From positions 8,582-72,581 of the forward strand of contig CAJOJI010000001.1 of NCBI GenBank assembly GCA_905234715.1: 64,000 nt of DNA, written 5' to 3'. The position numbers were made by a program, and so were the translations under genes. A model generated the notes under the pieces. It was given only the letters and a program-made list of their open reading frames with translations, ran no database searches and was not told the origin of the DNA. Each line of letters opens with the position of its first letter. The stretch's first letter is position 1. Source of the DNA: an uncultured Saccharofermentans sp. (GTDB taxonomy: Bacteria > Bacillota > Clostridia > Saccharofermentanales > Saccharofermentanaceae). This document shows positions 2,520 to 54,403 of this stretch, piece by piece.

Positions 2520-3074
2520 TTACTTGATGTTTTCTCTCCATGTTGCAGGCTTGAATTCGTCTATCAACGGGAGGAGTCTCTTATCAACGTCGATCTTGAA
2601 TACTGCATTGAAGTTGTTTGTTGCGATCATCTGACCTGCAAATCCTACGATGACAACGAGTTCCTGATCGTTAAAGAATTTTCTGAGTTTGTCGAAGAGC
2701 TCATCAGATACTGCAGTAGGATTCTTAACATATTGTTCAGCGAGTTCTGTGAGAACTGTTTCCTTCTCATCGTAAACGAGGTTAGCGGGATCCAAACCCA
2801 AACCCTTTACGTCACTGATGAAGAAGAGTGAGCAGAGCTGGCATGAGTTTGTTGTAGAGATCTTGTGAGCGTAGAGGATCGCATCCTTTTCGCCGATTAC
2901 TTCAACGAGTCTCTTCCAGGATGTGTACCAAGCCATGTATGCATCGTATGTTGCTGCATCGTTAAGAAGTCCCTTCTTCATGTTGGTAACTGCGTTTCTT
3001 CCTGCGAGCTCGTCATAGCGCTCCTTCTCTGCGCCTGTTGCTTCGTTCTGTTCTACCAATTTGATTCTTGCCAT
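2520..3074 (-). CDS. Carboxymuconolactone decarboxylase / AhpD-like protein with CxxC
   Basis: STTNSCQLC resembles the AhpD NxCxxC motif. The C-terminal half resembles CMD helical repeats. Start moved to ATG 3074 (RBS GGAG). Confidence 0.65.
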   Translation of the reverse strand: MARIKLVEQNEATGAEKERYDELAGRNAVTNMKKGLLNDAATYDAYMAWYTSWKRLVEVIGEKDAILYAHKISTTNSCQLCSLFFISDVKGLGLDPANLVYDEKETVLTELAEQYVKNPTAVSDELFDKLRKFFNDQELVVIVGFAGQMIATNNFNAVFKIDVDKRLLPLIDEFKPATWRENIK

Positions 3075-3115
3075 TTTTAGTAATCTCCTTTTTTGCAATT
3101 TAGTCCCGGTATTTT

Positions 3116-4276
3116 TTAAAGTGCGATCTTTAAGATCTCTACTATCTTTTGTGAGTCGAGCGGTTCATAGTGTCCTACGCTGCCGCCCTTTGTTGCGCGC
3201 TGTGCCATAACCTCAAAGTCCTTGTCAGTTATTCCGAGTTCGGACAGATGTGTCTTAAGTCCCAGTTTCTTAAAGAACTTCTCGAGTTCTTCCGATAACA
3301 GAAGCGCGCGTTCTTTTTCTGAATAGTCGTACGGATCCTTGCCGTAGACTCTGCTTGCGAGAAGTGCAAGTCTCCAGGGCTTGATGTCAGCAATGTACTT
3401 AGTCCAAGCTGTGAAGACGATAGCCATTCCTTCTCCGTGTGTGATGTTGTACTGTGCAGAGAGTTCATGCTCGATACGGTGTGATCCCCAGTCTGCCGAT
3501 CTTCCGGCATCAAGGAAATTATTGTGTGCTACTGATGCGAGCCACTGTATCTCTGCTCTTGCGTTGATGTTCGTAGGGTCTTCGATAAGTCTGTCTGCAT
3601 TGACGAGCAATGCTCTTACGGCGCCTTCGATAAGGTAGTCTGTCGTATCTGAATTCTTCTCATCAGAGAAATATCTTTCGAGAAGGTGTGACAACACGTC
3701 TGCGATTCCCACGAAGGTCTGATACGAAGGAAGGTTTACCGTGTACCTGGGGTTCATGATCGCGAACTTTGGGATAATGCGGTCATCTTCAAAACCTTTC
3801 TTCCACTCACCGTATGATAGGATCGCGCAGTTGGACGTCTCGGAACCGCTCGATGCCGTTGTCGCGATGACTCCGATGTTAAGAACGTGTTCGGGAGTAA
3901 CACCTTTATCGAAGAAATCCCAGACATCGCCATCGTACGGTATACCGAGAGCTATCGCTTTGGCGGTGTCGATGGAGCTGCCACCACCGACTGCGAGAAC
4001 GAAGTCAACTTTATCTTCCTTGCCCTTTGCGACAAGCTTTCTGACAAGCTCGATGGACGGATTTGGTACTACTTCACCACTCTCCGAGAACTTGATCCCG
4101 AGTTCCTTTACTGCGTCAGTGATGACGTCGTAAATACCCAGTGTTTTGATGAAGTCTCCGCTGTATACCAATAGGAGTGAACTGACTTTATGTTGCGATA
4201 AAAGAGACTTCAATTTCTTTTCGCTGTCCTCGCCGAAAACTATTTTCGCGGGGTTGTAATACTCAAATCCGATCAT
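3116..4276 (-). CDS. Iron-containing (group III) alcohol dehydrogenase, BdhA/YqhD-like
   Basis: VPNPS, AVGGGSSIDTAKAIA, TTASSGSE, and metal-binding H/D residues (DVLSH, SHRIEHELS, ITHGEG). Confidence 0.9.
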   Translation of the reverse strand: MIGFEYYNPAKIVFGEDSEKKLKSLLSQHKVSSLLLVYSGDFIKTLGIYDVITDAVKELGIKFSESGEVVPNPSIELVRKLVAKGKEDKVDFVLAVGGGSSIDTAKAIALGIPYDGDVWDFFDKGVTPEHVLNIGVIATTASSGSETSNCAILSYGEWKKGFEDDRIIPKFAIMNPRYTVNLPSYQTFVGIADVLSHLLERYFSDEKNSDTTDYLIEGAVRALLVNADRLIEDPTNINARAEIQWLASVAHNNFLDAGRSADWGSHRIEHELSAQYNITHGEGMAIVFTAWTKYIADIKPWRLALLASRVYGKDPYDYSEKERALLLSEELEKFFKKLGLKTHLSELGITDKDFEVMAQRATKGGSVGHYEPLDSQKIVEILKIAL

Positions 4277-4299: not shown

Positions 4300-5181
4300 T
4301 TAACCGAAGAGAGGTACTACTGCACCGTCGTATGTATCTTCGATGAACTTTGCAACTTCAGGTCCCTGAAGAACTTCTATGAGAGCCTTTACTGCAGGAT
4401 CGTTTGCCTTATCAGGTGATGTTGCAATGATGTTTCCGTATGTCTGTGCTGCAAGACCGTCGTTAGCTTCAACAGCAAGTGCCTGGCTTACGTGGAGGCC
4501 GCCTTCGATCGCATAGTTACCGTTAATGACTGCTACATCTACATCAGGGAGTGCTGCAACGAGCTGCTCAGGTGCAAGTTCCTTGAACTGAATGTTAAGA
4601 GGATTCTCTACGATGTCTTCTACCGTTGCATTGATTCCTGCATCGTCCTTAAGCTTGATGATGCCTTCCTGTGCGAGGAGGAGAAGTGCTCTTGCTTCGT
4701 TTGTTACATTGTTGGGAACTGCGATCACTGCGCCATCCTGGAGGTCCTTAAGATCTTTTACTCTGCCTGCATAGATGCCGAAAGGTTCATAGTGGACTGC
4801 GCCAACTGAAACAAGATCTGAACCGTTTTCTTTATTGAACTGTTCGAGGTAAGGAACGTGCTGGAAATAGTTTGCGTCAAGTGAGCCTTCGATAACGCCT
4901 GTGTTAGGTGTAACGGAATCTTCAAGTCTTACGATCTCGAGAGTGATTCCCTGCTCTGCGAGGATCGGCTTTGCAACTTCCAAGATCTCTGCGTGAGGTG
5001 TGATGTTTGCGCCTACCTTAAGTACTACATTAGCCTGTGCATCAGCCTGAGCTTCTGTCTGCGTATCGCTGCCTACATTTGTATTAACCTGTGTGGGCGC
5101 TGCTTTTCCGCATGCTGCGAATGATCCTGTGATTGCGAATAAAAGTCCTGCGGCAATAGCCTTCTTAATTATGTTTTTCAT
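4300..5181 (-). CDS. metQ: Methionine ABC transporter substrate-binding lipoprotein MetQ/NlpA
   Basis: Lipobox FAAC, PHAEILE, DANYFQHVPYL, AVPNNVTNEARALLLL, AVINGNYA. Confidence 0.92.
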   Translation of the reverse strand: MKNIIKKAIAAGLLFAITGSFAACGKAAPTQVNTNVGSDTQTEAQADAQANVVLKVGANITPHAEILEVAKPILAEQGITLEIVRLEDSVTPNTGVIEGSLDANYFQHVPYLEQFNKENGSDLVSVGAVHYEPFGIYAGRVKDLKDLQDGAVIAVPNNVTNEARALLLLAQEGIIKLKDDAGINATVEDIVENPLNIQFKELAPEQLVAALPDVDVAVINGNYAIEGGLHVSQALAVEANDGLAAQTYGNIIATSPDKANDPAVKALIEVLQGPEVAKFIEDTYDGAVVPLFG

Positions 5182-5246
5182 TTTGGTAATCTCCTTTAGA
5201 TGTGTTTTGTTTAGCTTTTCGCTTTAAGAATGATTTGTTTTGGCAT

Positions 5247-5280
5247 AAAAATGCCCGGTGAGTGATTTATCTCCCGGGCG
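5247..5280 (-). terminator. Attenuator terminator upstream of metQ
   Basis: mRNA GCCCGG-GAG...CUC-A-CCGGGC followed by AUUUUU. It lies between the leader stop and the metQ RBS. Confidence 0.8.
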
Positions 5281-5311
5281 CATGGCATATGTTCAAATGC
5301 AATTTACTGCT

Positions 5312-5437
5312 TTAACATCGATCGTTCTCAAGGCGTGAGGAATGTCTTCTTCCGCCCTGGGCCATATAGCGCACCCGGGAGCCGAGCATTCGACAACACA
5401 TCATCATGTTAGCTGTTGTATTAGTTGTTCTATACAT
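5312..5437 (-). CDS. Leader peptide A, 41 aa: MYRTTNTTANMMMCCRMLGSRVRYMAQGGRRHSSRLENDRC
   Basis: AAAGGAGG RBS 8 nt before ATG 5437, an MMMCCRM codon cluster, and a downstream terminator. Too short for the ORF track. Confidence 0.85.
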   Translation of the reverse strand: MYRTTNTTANMMMCCRMLGSRVRYMAQGGRRHSSRLENDRC

Positions 5438-5468
5438 TTCTCACTCCTCCTTTCGTTGTGATGGCGAT

Positions 5469-5503
5469 ACTTTACTACTCATAACCTACCATGTCAATAG
5501 GTT
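5469..5503 (-). promoter_or_regulatory. Sigma-A promoter (TTGACA-17-TAAAGT) with AACCTA-N9-TAGGTT operator
   Basis: -35 at 5492-5497, -10 at 5469-5474, perfect palindrome arms at 5483-5488 and 5498-5503. Confidence 0.75.
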
Positions 5504-5558
5504 TATTGAAATTTTTTTTCGCTTTCTTGAAAATTCCTGTTTTACTTGCTTTCGCGTA

Positions 5559-6122
5559 TTAAGAGATAACTGTCTTCTGCTTATTCTTATTTACTTCACT
5601 ATGCTGTGACAGCTGATACTTATCGAAAAGTTTTACGTACATAAGCGGTACTGCTCCGACGATCGCAGCACTTGCCTGGATACCGTTGGGAATAACCGAA
5701 CCCAATGCCGCTTCAACACCATACATAAACGGCAGTGATTCAAATGCAAAATAACCGGCGATCATGATGAGTTCGGCAATGAAAGATGCTGACAGTTTTC
5801 TTCCGAGGGAAACTTTTCCCTGAGCATTTCTCTTAAGCAGCAAACCTGCAATAAGGCCCATCACACCTTTGATGAGAAATGTAGCAACTGCATACTGCGG
5901 ATAACCGGCAAGAAGGTCTGCAAGTGTCGATCCGATCGCTGCGGGAACGAATGCAAAAGGTCCCATTATGTATGAAGTTACCAGTATCATAAGGTCACCT
6001 AAATTGATGTGTCCGATCGCTGTCGGAATGTGAAGTTCAGTGCCTACAAATATCAAGGCTGCGAGCACACCTGCGTATGCGATCTTCTTTAAATTGTTTC
6101 TGTTCTTGTCTTTACTGCTCAT
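5559..6122 (-). CDS. ECF transporter S component (HmpT/PdxU-like sequence family)
   Basis: About six hydrophobic helices, with AxxxA-type first helix, INLGD, GSTLADLLAGY and TFLIKG motifs. Confidence 0.85.
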   Translation of the reverse strand: MSSKDKNRNNLKKIAYAGVLAALIFVGTELHIPTAIGHINLGDLMILVTSYIMGPFAFVPAAIGSTLADLLAGYPQYAVATFLIKGVMGLIAGLLLKRNAQGKVSLGRKLSASFIAELIMIAGYFAFESLPFMYGVEAALGSVIPNGIQASAAIVGAVPLMYVKLFDKYQLSQHSEVNKNKQKTVIS

Positions 6123-6152
6123 GTTTTAATTCTCCTTTAACAATTATTTTTA

Positions 6153-6191
6153 CAAAAACAAAAACGGGAATTCTTTTTTAAGAACTCCCGT
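6153..6191 (-). terminator. Attenuator terminator upstream of the ECF S-component gene
   Basis: mRNA ACGGGAGUUCUU-AAAA-AAGAAUUCCCGU (12 bp, one G:U) followed by UUUUGUUUUUG. Confidence 0.85.
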
Positions 6192-6232
6192 ACAGTAACC
6201 ATTTTGCTTTGCGATCTTTATGTCATGGGTAA

Positions 6233-6310
6233 TCAGATCACTCCGGTCATATGCGGGAGGGTGACTAAAGCAGGGCACATGCAGATCATAGTGGCCTGAA
6301 TGCTTTTCAT
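6233..6310 (-). CDS. Leader peptide C, 25 aa: MKSIQATMICMCPALVTLPHMTGVI
   Basis: GGAGGAGGT RBS 7 nt before ATG 6310, an MICMC codon cluster, and a downstream terminator. Confidence 0.75.
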   Translation of the reverse strand: MKSIQATMICMCPALVTLPHMTGVI

Positions 6311-6339
6311 TGTCTTACCTCCTCCGATATGATGCGATA

Positions 6340-6374
6340 AAGTTAACATGTATTACCTATCGTGTCAATGGGTT
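6340..6374 (-). promoter_or_regulatory. Sigma-A promoter (TTGACA-17-TAACTT) with AACCCA-N9-TAGGTA operator variant
   Basis: -35 at 6363-6368, -10 at 6340-6345, palindrome variant at 6354-6374 in the same register as the other three sites. Confidence 0.7.
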
Positions 6375-6477
6375 TATTCTCAAGAATTCAAACATCAAGC
6401 ATAATTTAGTATGTCTTCATAAATATTGTTTTTTGCTATAATCTATCTCGATTTCGGGAAAGAAAAGGAATAACCAT

Positions 6478-7164
6478 ATGAAGAGATTAAAGATAGTATC
6501 AGTAATACTTACGGCATCTGTCCTCGCAGGAATCACGTCCTGCTCATCTGAACCTGCCGGAACAACTTCCTCTTCAATGGAACCTACAACTACGGCAGAA
6601 GTTGAAACAGAAGCAACAACGGCCGAACCTGAGATCACGGAAACCACACGCATCGATCCGCAGTCGACCGAACCTTTATGCCATATCTATTTTGAAGAAT
6701 ACGATTCTTTCGAAGTAACATCGACGGATCTTGTTGACGGCGTATGGGCAGACATAACATCCAACACATTCTTAGGCGAGAACCTTTCACCTCAGCTTTC
6801 ATGGGAGCCTGTCGAAGGCGCTGAAGAATACGTCATCTATATGGTCGACAGAAATTCAAACGGTTTTCTTCAGTGGAAATCTGCAGGAATCAAAACGACT
6901 GAACTCCCTCAGGGATGGACATCCAATCTTACCGAATATAACGGACCGCATCTCGGACACGGATATACACACATTTACGATATTTATGTAATAGCTTTAA
7001 GAGCACCGACGACAAGACTTAAAGGTGCATTAAACGCTGCCAATCCGAGACTTGAAGAATTCTTTGAAGAGATCGATACAGACACCGAAGGCAATACGGG
7101 AAACATCATTGCCTACGGAACAATATCCGGCATATTCACAGACGCAAGATACAGAAATATCTGA
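6478..7164 (+). CDS. YbhB/YbcL (PEBP/Raf kinase inhibitor-like) lipoprotein
   Basis: Lipobox ITSC, T/E-rich linker, GENLSPQLSW...YVIYMVD...YNGP..HGYTHIY.IYVIAL. Confidence 0.7.
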   Translation: MKRLKIVSVILTASVLAGITSCSSEPAGTTSSSMEPTTTAEVETEATTAEPEITETTRIDPQSTEPLCHIYFEEYDSFEVTSTDLVDGVWADITSNTFLGENLSPQLSWEPVEGAEEYVIYMVDRNSNGFLQWKSAGIKTTELPQGWTSNLTEYNGPHLGHGYTHIYDIYVIALRAPTTRLKGALNAANPRLEEFFEEIDTDTEGNTGNIIAYGTISGIFTDARYRNI

Positions 7165-13047: not shown

Positions 13048-13947
13048 TTACCCCCAAGATTCGATCGCTTCAACAGAGAGATCCACAAGATGTTCGCCTT
13101 CCACTCCGTCCATTGTATGTGTAGCTCCTTCGATAACGAAAAACTGCACATTCGGGAACGCAGCTAATGCAGGCTTGAAGAAATCGGGATCTTCTCCGAA
13201 GCTTCCCTCAGTTCCCGTGAATATGATCACAGGTATCTTGCATGTCTCAAGGATCGGATAGAGGTCTCTGTCTATCAGGACTTCATCTTCGAACCACATG
13301 ATTTCGGGAGCATAAAAACTCGGATCGACAAGTATAAGTCCTTTGATCTCATCCTGCCTGTAGGTTCCCGCGTAGCATACAACGATGCCGCCCATACTGT
13401 GTCCGTACAGATAGATATTCGAAGTATCAACTTCAGGAAGATATTCACATGAATCAATAACGGCGTACAGGTCTTTTATCTGGTCCACAACAAAGTTGCC
13501 CAGAAACGCCGGATCCTCACCTGACTCAGGACGCGTGCCATTCTGACAGAGAAATTCGATTACCGCAAAACCGTGCTCGCTGTAATGCTCGGCTTTATCC
13601 GAATATCTTCCGAGAGGCGCATATAATCCGCTGGTAATTATGATCGTCTTAAAAGGCCCCTGACCCTGGGGAACTGTAAGCCTGGCGTAGATCTCGCCTC
13701 CGTCGCGGTAGAAGATTACTTCCTTCGTTCTGCCTTCACTCTTTGAAACCGCAGGCATTAATATCGAATACTCGATGGGCGGGAATTCTTCCACCTTGAC
13801 CAGTCTTGTCTTGATTGGCTGTCTATCGGCATTTTCATTCATCACTTTACCGGGCTTTACAGGCTGCGGTTTTGAACACGAAGCCAGAAGGCAGGCGGTA
13901 ACTACTATCAATATCAGACACTTTATTCTTGATGATCTTTTTCTCAT
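13048..13947 (-). CDS. Alpha/beta hydrolase lipoprotein
   Basis: Lipobox LASC, nucleophile elbow GHSMGG, C-terminal GATH. Confidence 0.8.
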   Translation of the reverse strand: MRKRSSRIKCLILIVVTACLLASCSKPQPVKPGKVMNENADRQPIKTRLVKVEEFPPIEYSILMPAVSKSEGRTKEVIFYRDGGEIYARLTVPQGQGPFKTIIITSGLYAPLGRYSDKAEHYSEHGFAVIEFLCQNGTRPESGEDPAFLGNFVVDQIKDLYAVIDSCEYLPEVDTSNIYLYGHSMGGIVVCYAGTYRQDEIKGLILVDPSFYAPEIMWFEDEVLIDRDLYPILETCKIPVIIFTGTEGSFGEDPDFFKPALAAFPNVQFFVIEGATHTMDGVEGEHLVDLSVEAIESWG

Positions 13948-15071
13948 TACTTCATGATAACAAGCTCGTAATCACGTGTTCCGATTCCGATCTTCTCTCC
14001 GTGTTCAAGTGTTTCTTCCCACGAAACATTCGGATTGCTGTTGTGCCAGACATCACCGTGATCGTGGAAATGATCACTGTTCATATTATCACCTAACTGG
14101 CTGTTTCTGACAGGCTCGGCCTTCTGGCAGAGATCAACGCACGCCTGGTCCAGAGCAACCGGATCAAATGAAGCGAGCATTCCGATATCAGGAAGGATGG
14201 GCGCATCGTTCTCACCGTGGCAGTCGCAGTTCGGCGAAACATCCGTGATAAGACTTATGTGGAAGTTCGGTCTGCCGCTGATGACAGCTGCCGTATACTC
14301 GGCCATCTTTCTTCCAAGCATCGATGCTGCATCCCAGTTATCGTTTTCGATGGCATCGAATGCGCATGCTCCGATGCAGCGGCCGCATCCCTTACACTTA
14401 TCGGGATCGATCCTCGCTTTGCCGTTCTCGTAGATAAATGCGTCTGAACCGCATTCCTTAGAGCATCTTCTGCACCCTTTGCAGCGTTCGGTGATAACAT
14501 GGGGATGGCCGCTCTGATGTTGCTGCATCTTACCCGCACGGGAACCGCAACCCATGCCGATGTTCTTTATACAGCCGCCGAAGCCGGCCTGCTCATGTCC
14601 TTTGAAATGCGTAAGGGAGATAAAGATATCGGCATCCATTACGGCACGGCCGATGTAAGCTTCCTTGCAGTACTCACCATTGGGAACAGGAACGATTATG
14701 TCGTCAGTTCCTCTAAGTCCGTCAGCGATGATTATCTGGCATCCGGTAGTTATCGTGTTAAAACCGTTGATATTAGCGCAGTCCAGGTGTTCGAGCGCAT
14801 GCTTACGGCTTCCGGGATAAAGCGTATTGCAGTCGGTTAAAAAAGGCATTCCGCCGAGTTCTTTAACAACGTCAGCTACAGCCTTCGCATAATTGGGTCT
14901 TAAATATGCGAGATTTCCAAGTTCGCCGAAATGCATCTTGATCGCAACAAACTTGTTGTCCATATCGATAGACTGGATTCCCGCAAGCCTTATGAGCTTT
15001 TGAAGCTTGGCAGTAAGAGGCGTACCAAGACCCGTACGAAAATCAGTAAAATACACTTTTGATTTATCCAT
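13947..15071 (-). CDS. DUF362 domain protein with two 4Fe-4S ferredoxin motifs
   Basis: VAIKMHFGE, HFKGHE, KNIGMG, and two CxxCxxCxxxC motifs. Confidence 0.85.
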   Translation of the reverse strand: MDKSKVYFTDFRTGLGTPLTAKLQKLIRLAGIQSIDMDNKFVAIKMHFGELGNLAYLRPNYAKAVADVVKELGGMPFLTDCNTLYPGSRKHALEHLDCANINGFNTITTGCQIIIADGLRGTDDIIVPVPNGEYCKEAYIGRAVMDADIFISLTHFKGHEQAGFGGCIKNIGMGCGSRAGKMQQHQSGHPHVITERCKGCRRCSKECGSDAFIYENGKARIDPDKCKGCGRCIGACAFDAIENDNWDAASMLGRKMAEYTAAVISGRPNFHISLITDVSPNCDCHGENDAPILPDIGMLASFDPVALDQACVDLCQKAEPVRNSQLGDNMNSDHFHDHGDVWHNSNPNVSWEETLEHGEKIGIGTRDYELVIMK

Positions 15072-18999: not shown

Positions 19000-19098
19000 T
19001 CAACATCGCACATCGTCAAGGCGCATGTTCATGCAGTCAAACGCCAAGGCCGATTCAGCCCCTGGAATATGCATTCGACAACACATGATCATTAACAT
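19000..19098 (-). CDS. Leader peptide B, 32 aa: MLMIMCCRMHIPGAESALAFDCMNMRLDDVRC
   Basis: GGAGG RBS 8 nt before ATG 19098. Shares MxMCCRM and RLxxxRC-stop with leader A. Confidence 0.87.
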   Translation of the reverse strand: MLMIMCCRMHIPGAESALAFDCMNMRLDDVRC

Positions 19099-19138: not shown

Positions 19139-19172
19139 ATTATGCCACATAAACCTACCTTGTCAATAGGTT
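19139..19172 (-). promoter_or_regulatory. Sigma-A promoter (TTGACA-16-TGnCATAAT) with AACCTA-N9-TAGGTT operator
   Basis: -35 at 19161-19166, -10 at 19139-19144, perfect palindrome at 19152-19172, immediately after the iscU stop. Confidence 0.75.
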
Positions 19173-20790: not shown

Positions 20791-20825
20791 ATCATAATTC
20801 GTTTAACCCACCAAGTCAATAGGTT
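20791..20825 (-). promoter_or_regulatory. iscS promoter (TTGACT-17-TATGAT) with AACCTA-N9-TGGGTT operator variant
   Basis: -35 at 20814-20819, -10 at 20791-20796, palindrome at 20805-20825. Confidence 0.75.
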
Positions 20826-20845
20826 TATATGAAATCAATTTGATG

Positions 20846-20894
20846 TTGACAAGCTAATTCAGATTAGCTATAATCTGGCTAATTTGGATTAGCC
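20846..20894 (+). promoter_or_regulatory. Consensus sigma-A promoter with two GCTAAT-N4-ATTAGC TetR-type operators
   Basis: TTGACA 20846-20851, 17-bp spacer, TATAAT 20869-20874; palindromes at 20853-20868 and 20877-20894. Confidence 0.8.
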
Positions 20895-20914
20895 AACATT
20901 TTCGAGAGGTCAAT

Positions 20915-21532
20915 ATGGATACAAAGCAGAGAATTCTTGATGAAGCACTTACACTCTTTTCCGAGAAAGGTTACGCGAATGTCTTTGTCGGCGACATCGC
21001 TGAGCGGGTCGGAATTAAGGCGCCTTCACTATATAAACACTATAAGAATAAAAGAGCGATTTTCGACGCCATAATCGATCTGATGAATTCCAGATTTGCC
21101 GAGCAGGCCAAGGCACTTCAGATCAGCGGTACCGATGCTGCCGTGGATTCGAAAATATATCAGAACATGTCTGAAGAAAATCTTCTCAAACTAGGACGTG
21201 AATTCTTCCTCTTCTATCTTCATGACGACTACAACAAACGCTTCCGGAAAATGCTCACGTTAGAACAGTTCAGCAGCAAGGAACTTGCAGGGATCTACAC
21301 AAAACTTTATGTCGATGATCCGCTCTCATACCAGAGCATGCTTCTCGGAATGGTCGCAGCAGCAGGAATGCTTCACACGGATGACGTCGAGATAATGACT
21401 CTCCACTTCTACTCGCCCATCTACTACCTGCTAACGATATGCGACAGAGATCCTTCGAGAGAACCATGGGCATTGGAAACTCTGGACAAACACATCAAAC
21501 AATTTAATCGCCTTTACGGGAGGACAAAATAA
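20915..21532 (+). CDS. TetR/AcrR family regulator
   Basis: TKQRILDEALTLFSEKGY...IAERVGIKAPSLYKHY. Confidence 0.93.
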   Translation: MDTKQRILDEALTLFSEKGYANVFVGDIAERVGIKAPSLYKHYKNKRAIFDAIIDLMNSRFAEQAKALQISGTDAAVDSKIYQNMSEENLLKLGREFFLFYLHDDYNKRFRKMLTLEQFSSKELAGIYTKLYVDDPLSYQSMLLGMVAAAGMLHTDDVEIMTLHFYSPIYYLLTICDRDPSREPWALETLDKHIKQFNRLYGRTK

Positions 21533-54207: not shown

Positions 54208-54233
54208 GACAATCCCTCCTTTAAGATTGATGA

Positions 54234-54345
54234 GCAAAGAACGGACAACCCGGAGGGGCAGGTTACTTACCCTGTATAACAGGACGGCCGGGCTACCTAC
54301 CGGCTCTGGCATATCTTACGGTATGCGTTGCGTTTTTATCTTTGC
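54234..54345 (-). ncRNA. yjdF (azaaromatic-sensing) riboswitch
   Basis: GCAAAGA/UUCUUUGC closing stem, CCGGUAGGUAGCCCGG and AGUAACCUGCCCCUCCGGGUUGUCC motifs, directly upstream of the yjdF RBS. Confidence 0.9.
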
Positions 54346-54403
54346 ATGTTACGGGATAATTATATCACCTGTGATATCTGTAAAAACATCACAGAGAAAC
54401 ACT

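Follow-up and report, generated by a model that had tools for sequence, protein, structure and literature searches.

A candidate cysteine-codon attenuator upstream of an ECF-transporter S-component gene in an uncultured Saccharofermentans

Introduction

Leader-peptide attenuation is textbook knowledge, yet it is rare in Firmicutes, where T-boxes and riboswitches are the usual amino-acid sensors. To our knowledge, mycobacteria are the only group with experimentally demonstrated cysteine-sensing leaders, and these act on translation. The trpL, hisL, leuL and thrL leaders of Enterobacteria and the his leader of Bacillus hisS/hisZ (PMC2965389) consist of a small open reading frame (sORF) that is led by a Shine-Dalgarno (SD) sequence and contains codons for the sensed residue. 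In trpL-type attenuators the RNA has four segments with exclusive 1:2, 2:3 and 3:4 pairings, the terminator lies before the first structural gene, and the position of the ribosome decides the outcome. The mycobacterial polycysteine sORFs of the 'Cys ribulon' (bioRxiv 10.1101/834739; predicted earlier in PMC1262725) are runs of Cys codons before cysteine-metabolism operons at several loci, and stalling on these codons turns expression on. They are leaderless and act on translation, as the stalled ribosome opens a duplex that hides the SD of the next gene, with no terminator involved. In Rhodobacterales, uORFC-8-2 has been predicted upstream of cysS as a ribosome-mediated attenuator; it has two Cys codons in tandem and a terminator stem (PMC8632094). 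The Cys T-boxes of Clostridium (ubiG-mccBA, cysK, cysP; PMC2940859) respond to uncharged tRNA-Cys with a terminator or antiterminator, and the RNA binds the tRNA directly via the specifier codon and the T-box. The mccAB genes encode the conversion of methionine to cysteine, and their response to cysteine runs via CymR in B. subtilis and via a Cys T-box in C. perfringens (PMC2940859, PMC3828012).

The locus analysed here, leader C, lies on the minus strand of a 64-kb stretch of DNA (the window) from an uncultured Saccharofermentans, before a gene for an ECF-transporter S component. It shares with the trpL-type attenuators the SD-led sORF with codons of the sensed residue, the four segments with predicted exclusive pairings, the terminator before the first structural gene and the proposed role of ribosome position. 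It differs from them in several respects: cysteine would be sensed, with no more than 2-3 regulatory codons; the 5' end with the SD region would serve as segment 1, in place of the region of the regulatory codons; the genes concerned are transporter and salvage genes and not a biosynthetic operon, with a conserved operator in the promoter; and the host belongs to the Clostridia, where T-boxes and S-boxes are the norm. Like the mycobacterial sORFs, leader C carries a signal common to several loci and would switch on when ribosomes stall at its Cys codons, but unlike them it is preceded by a predicted 5' UTR that includes an SD and is followed by a canonical terminator and its U-tract. It resembles uORFC-8-2 in its Cys codons and terminator stem, whereas uORFC-8-2 is found in another phylum before a cysteinyl-tRNA synthetase gene, carries its Cys codons inside the first stem, has no sequence relationship to leader C and no operator, and is also only a prediction. 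The Clostridium Cys T-boxes share with leader C the signal, the type of output and part of the pathway, but leader C would use a translated sORF as the sensor. The two would be a clean natural example of a sensor swap, Cys T-box versus Cys leader, on one pathway. In the literature we found no Cys leader described in Clostridia, and a cysteine leader for this gene set and for these gut and rumen bacteria appears not to have been described before.

Results and discussion

Layout of leader C

The sequence-only reading of this locus had proposed an attenuator-like leader before the S-component gene. All sequence statements on leader C were verified, and the elements are as follows.

6356 to 6372, minus strand: operator-like inverted repeat CCCATTGACACGATAGG (motif ACCTA-N9-TAGGT) over the -35 element (TTGACA, 6368-6363)
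6340 to 6348, minus strand: promoter -10, extended TGTTAACTT, 17 nt past the -35, read from the sequence
6318 to 6332, minus strand: segment 1, the transcript 5' end including the SD GGAGGAGG (6325-6318), from folds
6233 to 6310, minus strand: leader sORF of 25 codons plus stop (ATG 6310-6308, TGA 6235-6233), peptide MKSIQATMICMCPALVTLPHMTGVI
6275 to 6283, minus strand: regulatory codons UGC-AUG-UGC (Cys10, Met11, Cys12), with TGC at 6283-6281 and 6277-6275
6245 to 6259, minus strand: segment 2, antiterminator 5' arm CUCCCGCAUAUGACC, within the sORF, from its pairing with 6200-6185
6211 to 6241, minus strand: small hairpin GUGAUCU ... AGAUCGC round the sORF stop, enclosed by the antiterminator, in all folds
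6185 to 6200, minus strand: segment 3, antiterminator 3' arm GGUUACUGUACGGGAG, its last 7 nt being the start of the terminator 5' arm
6153 to 6191, minus strand: intrinsic terminator with a 12-bp stem (6191-6164), a loop of 4 and -16.3 kcal/mol, followed by the U-tract TTTTTGTTTTT (6163-6153)
5559 to 6122, minus strand: ECF-transporter S component, PF07155, 187 aa (Pfam 4.8e-27; SD 6136-6132)

Judged from the promoter sequence, transcription would start at about 6333-6335. With an SD in front of it and the predicted -10 element 30 nt before its AUG, the sORF is not leaderless. The third position of the Cys run is CCU (Pro) in the window copy, which has two Cys codons split by Met, and with only these two its dynamic range may be small. 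The Cys codons are outside the regulatory helix. The terminator, a stem with a U-tract, lies 41 nt before the S-component gene, the SD of which is outside every predicted helix. The small hairpin round the stop may act as a pause site; in group-2 orthologues a different hairpin (GGCAU...AUGCC) is found at the same position.

Among the SD-preceded sORFs of 10-60 aa in the window, CC or CxC occurred in 3/42, and these were exactly leader C and two further leaders, A and B. Cys makes up 1.6% of residues, and the probability of CC or CxC in 24 random residues was 0.011. Rfam searches at the gathering score across the whole window gave no T-box, SAM or leader family at leader C, and the sole riboswitch in the window was yjdF (54225-54349). 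At E<=10, the region 5100-6500 gave no riboswitch, T-box or leader family. A match to the L20 leader was rejected, with 19 bits against a threshold of 58.7 bits. The fit of a known vitamin riboswitch, which had been named as evidence against an attenuator, was thus not found with any of the Rfam models.

Folding of the leader transcript

Segments 2 and 3 formed 14 pairs with one mismatch and one bulge at -18.2/-18.4 kcal/mol (RNAduplex), in agreement with the approximately 14 bp noted earlier for these arms. The alternative helix and the terminator 5' arm have 7 nt (6191-6185) in common. The duplex energies were comparable, with -18.2 for 2:3, -15.1 for 1:2 and -16.3 kcal/mol for the terminator. 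When the nascent transcript was folded at lengths that stop short of segment 3, the pairing of segments 1 and 2 (anti-antiterminator) was the MFE pairing. RNAalifold recovered the SD:CUCC helix with one compensatory pair (G-C in four, A-U in four and A.C in two sequences). The 1:2 helix is largely SD:anti-SD complementarity, and any arm containing CUCC would yield such pairing.

Equilibrium folds of the full leader always gave the terminator and did not discriminate between states, and we therefore used truncated transcripts with the ribosome masked. With the ribosome masked at the Cys codons the truncated transcript adopted the 2:3 helix, whereas masking at the stop codon made this helix impossible. 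At equilibrium the full-length RNA favoured the terminator (-53.1 vs -40.3 kcal/mol with the antiterminator forced), so the attenuation model depends on kinetics.

The antiterminator arm of these leaders begins 13-16 nt downstream of the last Cys codon, and 10-14 nt separate its end from the stop. This spacing fits ribosome-mediated attenuation, in which a ribosome stalled at the Cys codons would leave segment 2 free and one at the stop would cover it. For the single window sequence the antiterminator complementarity had P=0.03 in 2000 dinucleotide shuffles, and P=0.007 with the arm start confined to 8-18 nt past the Cys codons; 24/901 tiles of the window paired as well. The complementarity of the single sequence is thus only modestly unusual, and the strength of the case lies in context and conservation.

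Proposed mechanism

We consider leader C to be a classical ribosome-mediated transcription attenuator that senses the supply of charged tRNA-Cys, with a probability of roughly 0.8. Transcription would run from a sigma-70-type promoter at about 6333, with the -35 inside the operator-like repeat as a probable second, repressor-based layer, and a ribosome would translate the 25-codon sORF. When Cys-tRNA is plentiful, the ribosome would reach the stop (6235-6233) and mask segment 2 while segments 3 and 4 emerge from the polymerase. The 12-bp terminator would then form and leave the S-component gene untranscribed. When Cys-tRNA is scarce, the ribosome would stall at UGC-AUG-UGC (6283-6275) with its footprint just short of segment 2, which would pair with segment 3, take 7 nt of the terminator 5' arm and allow read-through. 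In the absence of translation, segment 1 (6332-6318) would pre-pair with segment 2, giving termination by default. Most likely, this mini-gene before the transporter gene switches the transporter on when cysteine is short. Leader C and its relatives would then be a classical terminator-based cysteine attenuator in Clostridia.

Conservation in orthologous loci

In ten orthologous loci, which come from Saccharofermentans-like MAGs of the rumen, the leader is retained from the promoter, with its TGnTAAnTT -10 element, through the SD, AUG, frame and Cys codons to the antiterminator and the terminator, while other codons vary and length differences of the sORF are in-frame. Together with the elements listed above, these loci support the early proposal of an attenuator-like leader. 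No orthologue had a terminator without the sORF: the S gene was found either with the full leader (10 loci) or leaderless, directly after metI in the metNI operon (6 relatives). This place beside the methionine-uptake genes fits control by cysteine, in view of the known conversion of methionine to cysteine by mccAB. In the more distant S-component homologues there was no Cys leader and the contexts were others, e.g. a divergent GntR-like gene. The S-component homologues carry only generic database names, and the leader is a functional clue for this uncharacterised ECF transporter; we regard its substrate as linked to Met/Cys metabolism. One assembled metatranscriptome contig, which could be DNA, covers leader C from promoter to gene.

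The helix of segments 2 and 3 had 91% of cells paired in 11 sequences, compared with 27-43% in slid controls. The terminator had 93% of cells paired in the orthologues, with G-C/G-U and U-A/U-G changes; for the two helices together the slid controls gave 27-56%. The wobble positions in the segment 2 arm were invariant. Two-sided covariation was absent from the two key helices in these 11 sequences, which come from two close clades only and are too similar to show it. Leader B, the closest paralogue, was used for covariation in place of leader C, and its antiterminator was 100% paired in 12 sequences with a compensatory change from G-C to A-U through a G-U intermediate.

The sequence-only reading had described an MICMC leader and noted TGC in leader C where leaders A and B use TGT. 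The codons are as it described, with TGT TGT in A and B, and the difference carries no weight because orthologues mix both. Cys-Cys or Cys-Met-Cys(-Cys) was invariant in 11/11 C-type leaders while flanking residues varied, and among the core variants (MICMCC, MILMCC, HTMCC, HHKCC, HLTCC) Met was not kept. As only the Cys codons are invariant across orthologues, we take the sensed residue to be Cys and not the whole motif. A dual sensor, in which adjacent Met codons are also regulatory and the leader reports shortage of either amino acid, is unlikely. It would fit the import of methionine by regulated genes and the Met codons that are common next to the Cys codons of many family members (MMMCCRM, MIMCCRM, MICMCC, MKCMCCCM). 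However, Met is absent from the C-type cores HHKCC, HLTCC and YHKCC and from RRNCCCCCE and NSVCCC in Lachnospiraceae / Fibrobacter leaders. The conserved 'RM' after the Cys codons falls in a fixed 12-nt spacer, the later Met (MAG) belongs to the AUGGC helix, and limitation of Met-tRNA would hit initiation as well.

Relation to a wider leader family

Leaders A and B belong to a leader family with the consensus MCCRMLNSRA..MAG, which as found here comprises the two and more than 45 relatives. Their terminators were read from folds.

5312 to 5437, minus strand: leader B sORF MYRTTNTTANMMMCCRMLGSRV...RC, upstream of metQ, with the operator at 5485-5501; closest paralogue of C
19000 to 19098, minus strand: leader A sORF MLMIMCCRMHIPG...RC, before mccB-like, cysK/mccA-like, metN and metI, with the operator at 19154-19170

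The family is widespread in gut and rumen Firmicutes upstream of genes for conversion of methionine to cysteine and for uptake (metNIQ, mccB-like, cysK/mccA-like). In Saccharofermentans-like MAGs, Lachnospiraceae and Fibrobacter, mccB orthologues have poly-Cys sORFs upstream, with 2-6 Cys each. The leader would mark a regulon for obtaining cysteine from methionine, with metNIQ, mccB-like, cysK/mccA-like and the ECF S component, and it offers a sequence signature to annotate sulfur-metabolism genes in uncultured rumen and gut genomes.

Leader C carries the family features: the operator/-35 motif, Cys codons at about residues 10-15, a YCCCG arm 12-13 nt downstream and a terminator that begins ...CCCGGGAG/CGGGAG. 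Counted from the last core Cys codon, the YCCCG arm starts after 13 nt in 10/11 C-type leaders, after 16 nt in the window copy, and after 12 nt in 34/40 other family leaders.

An independent origin of leader C had been suggested from its lack of obvious similarity to leaders A and B. The observation held for pairwise alignments, which outside the -35 motif were not significant (z 0.7 and -0.8), but not for the -35 region, which is nearly identical in the three leaders (CCYATTGACANNNTRGG), nor for profiles. A family profile of 45 other leaders, made without the promoter, recognised leader C: it matched 7/11 C-type sequences with 3.7-13 bits, whereas the best of 550 shuffles reached -0.2 bits, and a profile of B leaders only matched leader C with E=1.3e-4. 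The similarity runs through the SD, AUG, Cys codons and arm. The elements are collinear (SD, AUG, Cys codons at residues 10-13, CUCCCG arm, AUAUG(A/G)CC) with a clean 7-nt gap, and in the alignment the C-type arm is the family arm minus 7 nt, translated in a shifted frame relative to the family. Convergence, which would also fit the shorter sORF of C (25 vs 32-41 codons) and its different C-terminal peptide, is therefore improbable in view of these profile matches, the collinear elements and the operator and -35 motif common to A, B and C. In relatives leader B stands immediately downstream of the S gene (metN-metI-S-leaderB-metQ), and for this reason leader C is most simply a diverged copy, a paralogue within the family.

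The alternatives to ribosome-mediated attenuation were also considered in the light of the family. An RNA-only element (a riboswitch or protein-binding leader with an untranslated sORF), or control by the repressor only with an incidental sORF and terminator, is very unlikely. Such control would agree with the high nucleotide conservation around AUGUGUUGUCGAAUG, with the single core Cys codon in 9/45 family leaders and with the operator that, without a leader, precedes many regulon genes (iscS, cysK). Against this, every member has retained the SD, the AUG and a frame that is open through the Cys codons; the N-terminal part varies in sequence and, by multiples of three, in length; and the Cys run of 1-6 codons expands in-frame. 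No conserved aptamer-like structure was found, in line with the negative Rfam results.

One RNA motif in the arm encodes Ser-Arg in the rest of the family and Leu-Pro in the C-type leaders, and the constraint is therefore on the RNA and not on the peptide. A TnaC-type arrest, in which the ribosome would stall close to the stop on the conserved C-terminal LPxMTG(V)I(C) in response to a small molecule, is likewise very unlikely. It would agree with the stronger conservation of C-terminal than of N-terminal residues in the 11 C-type leaders and with the Cys codon right before the stop, which recurs in A, B and 8/11 of them. However, the Ser-Arg nucleotides of the family lie at equal distance from the Cys codons, the arm wobble positions do not vary, the helix position with H/R/N substitutions is the unpaired one, and the window copy has no terminal Cys.

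Operator-like repeat and a possible second layer

The ACCTA-N9-TAGGT motif occurred at 4 sites in the window, compared with 0.06 expected, and all C orthologues retain it. It is widespread in front of sulfur genes, also stands before three Rrf2 genes, and is found in Treponema as well. The leader family was present at 25/80 of the operator sites analysed. These occurrences suggest that the repeat is probably the binding site of an Rrf2-type repressor, with the following DNA as its putative target.

Operator DNA, putative Rrf2 target: ACCTATTGACATAGTAGGT

The 64-kb window itself has no Rrf2 gene.

A broader reading, to which we would give slightly less than even odds, is a two-layer cysteine regulon, apparently undescribed so far, that is spread among gut and rumen bacteria. 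An Rrf2-type (CymR/IscR-like) repressor would act on ACCTA-N9-TAGGT across the -35 element, and the conserved Cys-codon leader would add tRNA-Cys sensing on a subset of operons, replacing the Cys T-box/S-box of other Firmicutes. The cassette would have been copied to new genes and moved between Oscillospirales and Lachnospiraceae, with the operator alone in Treponema. If this holds, the compound imported by the PF07155 S component would be related to cysteine or methionine and would form a new substrate class for ECF transporters.

The divergent TetR gene (20915-21532) was also considered as the regulator of the operator and was rejected, since that gene comes with palindromes of its own and since the operator is found before Rrf2 genes at other loci.

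Parts of leader C

The region that the sequence-only reading had marked upstream of an ECF-transporter S-component gene proved to hold a complete regulatory leader, here leader C, with all parts on the minus strand. Two other Cys leaders, A and B, lie in the window.

Leader C and related features (coordinates, strand, feature)
6368-6363, minus: -35 box TTGACA of a sigma-70-type promoter recognised from the sequence; spacer 17 nt
6348-6340, minus: extended -10 TGTTAACTT of the same promoter
6332-6318, minus: segment 1, 5' end of the leader plus Shine-Dalgarno (SD)
6325-6318, minus: strong SD GGAGGAGG
6310-6233, minus: sORF, 25 codons, peptide MKSIQATMICMCPALVTLPHMTGVI
6259-6245, minus: segment 2, CUCCCGCAUAUGACC, antiterminator 5' arm
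6241-6211, minus: small hairpin at the sORF stop codon
6200-6185, minus: segment 3, GGUUACUGUACGGGAG, antiterminator 3' arm
6191-6164, minus: intrinsic terminator, 12 bp, followed by TTTTTGTTTTT
5559-6122, minus: S-component gene, 187 aa, PF07155 (E=4.8e-27), start 41 nt past the terminator
5437-5312, minus: leader B, upstream of metQ
19098-19000, minus: leader A, upstream of mccB-like, cysK/mccA-like, metN and metI genes

The proposed alternative helix between segments 2 and 3 was confirmed, with 14 pairs, one mismatch and one bulge, and it takes 7 nt from the 5' arm of the terminator. Its duplex energy (-18.2 kcal/mol) is comparable to those of the segment 1:segment 2 pairing (-15.1 kcal/mol) and the terminator (-16.3 kcal/mol). 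No Rfam family fitted leader C when the whole window was searched at gathering thresholds and positions 5100-6500 at E<=10. The sole above-threshold Rfam family in the window was a yjdF (azaaromatic) riboswitch aptamer at 54225-54349 (minus, 73 bits).

Conservation among orthologues

MAGs from the rumen, which carry the labels Saccharofermentans, Ruminococcaceae or Oscillospiraceae, contain orthologues of the S component at 81-89% identity. Leader C is present at ten of these loci, in two subclades (L001, L003, L005-L007 and L010-L014), and promoter, SD, AUG, open frame, terminator and antiterminator are retained in all ten. Six other orthologous loci (L002, L004, L008, L015-L017) are leaderless, so that no orthologue kept the terminator while lacking the sORF. 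At these six the S gene directly follows metI within the metNI operon, which ties the transporter to Met/Cys uptake; metagenome contigs gave the gene order metN-metI-S-[leader B]-metQ-Fe-ADH.

The orthologous peptides include MKRITATMICMCCTEVVLPNMTGVIC, MRHIQATMILMCCTKVTLPHMTGVIC, MNGITTTKTHTMCCFEVTLPRMTGIC and MNSITTTTMYHKCCFEVTLPRMTGIC. In the N-terminal two-thirds of the C-type peptides (window leader C and its ten orthologues), Cys-Cys is the sole invariant, written Cys-Met-Cys in the window. The MICMC motif first proposed as the signal was therefore not upheld: Met codons vary, and Cys would be the residue sensed. The use of TGC rather than TGT, to which weight had also been given, carries none, since both codons are mixed among the orthologues.

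A 77%-identical homologue of the S component (L133) follows GCS2 (glutamate-cysteine-ligase-like) and GATase_4 genes, a context suggestive of a gamma-glutamyl or cysteine-related substrate. The same genomes also carry a paralogue (66-72% identical, L018-L021) with no leader and with a divergent gene labelled GntR-like from its ORF and a shared CATCTGGTTATAT box.

In the alignment of the 11 C-type leaders the terminator was 93% and the antiterminator 91% paired, as compared to 27-56% in controls with the 3' partner moved by 1-3 columns. The helices show one-sided G-C/G-U and U-A/U-G changes; no two-sided covariation was found among these 11 sequences, as they are too similar. The terminator was also recovered independently by RNAalifold, together with pairing of the SD (GGAGG or GGAGA) to segment 2 (CCUCC or UCUCC). 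One pair of this second helix is compensatory, being G-C and A-U in four sequences each and A.C in two. The 16-bp antiterminator of leader B was 100% paired in 12 sequences, with a G-C to A-U change and a G-U intermediate.

Taken alone, the antiterminator complementarity in the window is mildly unusual (P=0.03, dinucleotide shuffles), or P=0.007 when the arm has to start 8-18 nt past the Cys codons. The context is a much stronger argument against chance than this single-sequence complementarity: CC or CxC occurs in 3 of the 42 SD-preceded sORFs (10-60 aa) of the 64-kb window, namely leaders A, B and C only, with Cys making up 1.6% of residues here and a probability of 0.011 for CC or CxC in a random 24-mer.

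Predicted mechanism and known systems

Co-transcriptional folds of leader C resemble a four-segment attenuator. The 1:2 pairing is the MFE structure before segment 3 is synthesized, and 2:3 forms once segment 3 is made with segment 2 free, as it does when a ribosome occupies the Cys codons; a ribosome placed at the stop codon prevents 2:3 and leaves segment 3 to the terminator. As the full-length RNA favours the terminator at equilibrium, switching has to depend on kinetics, like that of trp. The distance from the last core Cys codon to the start of the YCCCG arm is 13 nt in 10/11 C-type leaders; in the window, where the third Cys codon became CCU, it is 16 nt. It is 12 nt in 34/40 other leaders of the A/B-like family. 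The spacing is right and conserved, just past the 3' footprint of the ribosome. From the folds and this spacing we read leader C as a putative sensor of charged tRNA-Cys, in which a ribosome stalled at UGC-AUG-UGC would give read-through, and full translation of the sORF, or no translation at all, would give termination. The stop-codon hairpin has the same position but a different sequence in the two subclades, and could serve to pause polymerase and so couple it to the ribosome.

Leader C would in this way work like trpL, hisL and their relatives, and at the sequence level it has all the testable features of such classical attenuators except two-sided covariation. Polycysteine sORFs of mycobacteria are leaderless and translational and have no terminator (10.1101/834739; PMC1262725), which places leader C outside that class; in 2020 their authors stated that uORF-mediated attenuation for cysteine was previously undescribed (10.1101/834739). 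For cysS of Rhodobacterales, a Cys uORF of the terminator type was predicted (PMC8632094); it is unrelated to leader C by sequence, gene and phylum. In Clostridium species the genes of this same pathway, ubiG-mccBA, cysK and cysP, are under Cys-specific T-boxes (PMC2940859), and leader C therefore looks like a sensor swap with signal and output unchanged. The literature searches turned up no account of a Cys leader from Clostridia.

Relation to leaders A and B

Leader C had been described as having no obvious similarity to A and B. This holds pairwise, as similarity outside the -35 motif was not significant; however, all three have in common a 17-nt motif that surrounds the -35 box, CCYATTGACANNNTRGG, and profiles detect further likeness. 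A leader B profile gave a collinear match to a C-type leader that runs from the 5' UTR to CUCCCG (E=1.3e-4). A profile built on 45 further family leaders, promoter excluded, matched 7/11 C-type leaders with scores of 3.7-13 bits; among 550 shuffled C sequences the highest score was -0.2 bits. The family arm CUCCCGGgcatgtAAUAUGGCCGG aligns to C-type CUCCCG-------AAUAUGACCGG, in which this arm has lost 7 nt by deletion, and consequently UCC CGG (Ser-Arg) in the family is read as CUC CCG (Leu-Pro) in C-type leaders, equidistant from the Cys codons. This frame-shifted reading at equal distance argues that leader C is a diverged paralogue, most simply copied from neighbouring leader B, and that the conserved 'peptide' past the Cys codons reflects RNA pairing rather than a functional or arrest peptide. 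Of the original interpretation, the attenuator still looks functional, judged by its sequence; Cys has replaced MICMC, and the common motif, profile matches and shared arm speak against independent invention.

A probable common operator

The inverted repeat ACCTA-N9-TAGGT encloses the -35 TTGACA upstream of the three Cys leaders and of iscS-iscU, giving four sites in the window against 0.06 expected.

Operator-like sites (coordinates, strand)
5485-5501, minus
6356-6372, minus
19154-19170, minus
20807-20823, minus, upstream of iscS

The 19-mer operator ACCTATTGACATRRTAGGT has at least 120 sites in a species-representative genome collection, with about 17 chance matches estimated from the pattern and the collection size; the matches listed fall in gut and rumen Firmicutes (Lachnospiraceae, Oscillospirales and Christensenellaceae) and in Treponema. 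Downstream genes include metY/mccB-like PLP enzymes, cysK, iscS, metQ, metN, a cystine-type binding protein (SBP_bac_3, tcyA-like), GCS2, a cysD-like gene and three Rrf2-family regulators (PF02082). The sulfur genes together with the Rrf2 genes suggest that the operator is the predicted site of an autoregulated CymR/IscR-like repressor. No Rrf2-type regulator gene is encoded in the 64-kb window.

A TetR-family gene (20915-21532, plus) is divergent from iscS. Two palindromes, both near-perfect (TGGCTAATCCAAATTAGCCA and AGCTAATCTGAATTAGCT), lie in the intergenic region 20830-20915; they are probably operators of the TetR gene itself, with no relation to the Cys operator. The operons behind the Cys leaders also include candidates for the cysteine regulon whose role is not obvious, namely a DUF362 plus 4Fe-4S protein (13947-15071, minus, after metI) and an Fe-alcohol dehydrogenase with a YciW/AhpD-like protein (2520-4276, minus, after metQ).

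The wider leader family

A Cys leader was found at 25/80 operator sites analysed. The consensus of the family reads ..(M)MCC(C)RM(L)NSRA..MAG...RC; its NSRA and MAG parts correspond to the two segments that make up the antiterminator helix in leader B. Upstream of mccB orthologues, a scan detected poly-Cys sORFs in Saccharofermentans-like MAGs (MKCMCCCMSY...), in Lachnospiraceae (..RRNCCCCCE, ..NRICCCCCCRD) and in Fibrobacter (MNFLFNSFNSVCCC, MNQKMMNMCCCCWS). Wherever the automated search located a terminator for these, an antiterminator arm was located too. This widespread family and the operator that goes with it are apparently undescribed.

The Fibrobacter sORFs (e.g. MNQKMMNMCCCCWS; L073, L077, L078, L084, L086, L092) are short, lie with terminators upstream of an mccB-like gene and lack the Firmicute operator; the same logic may have arisen separately there. 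A Cys codon directly before the stop (..RC*, ..IC*) occurs in leaders A (19000-19005) and B (5312-5317), in the majority of wider-family members and in 8/11 C-type leaders (L001, L003, L005, L010-L014), and is absent from leader C of the window; this codon may act as a second checkpoint, or may just belong to the RNA structure. Additionally, a second type of leader peptide, ..FEKLVRENYRFGRM..CC(C), with C-terminal Cys codons, was observed behind the same operator in Treponema and some Clostridia (L167, L179, L202, L251, L147).
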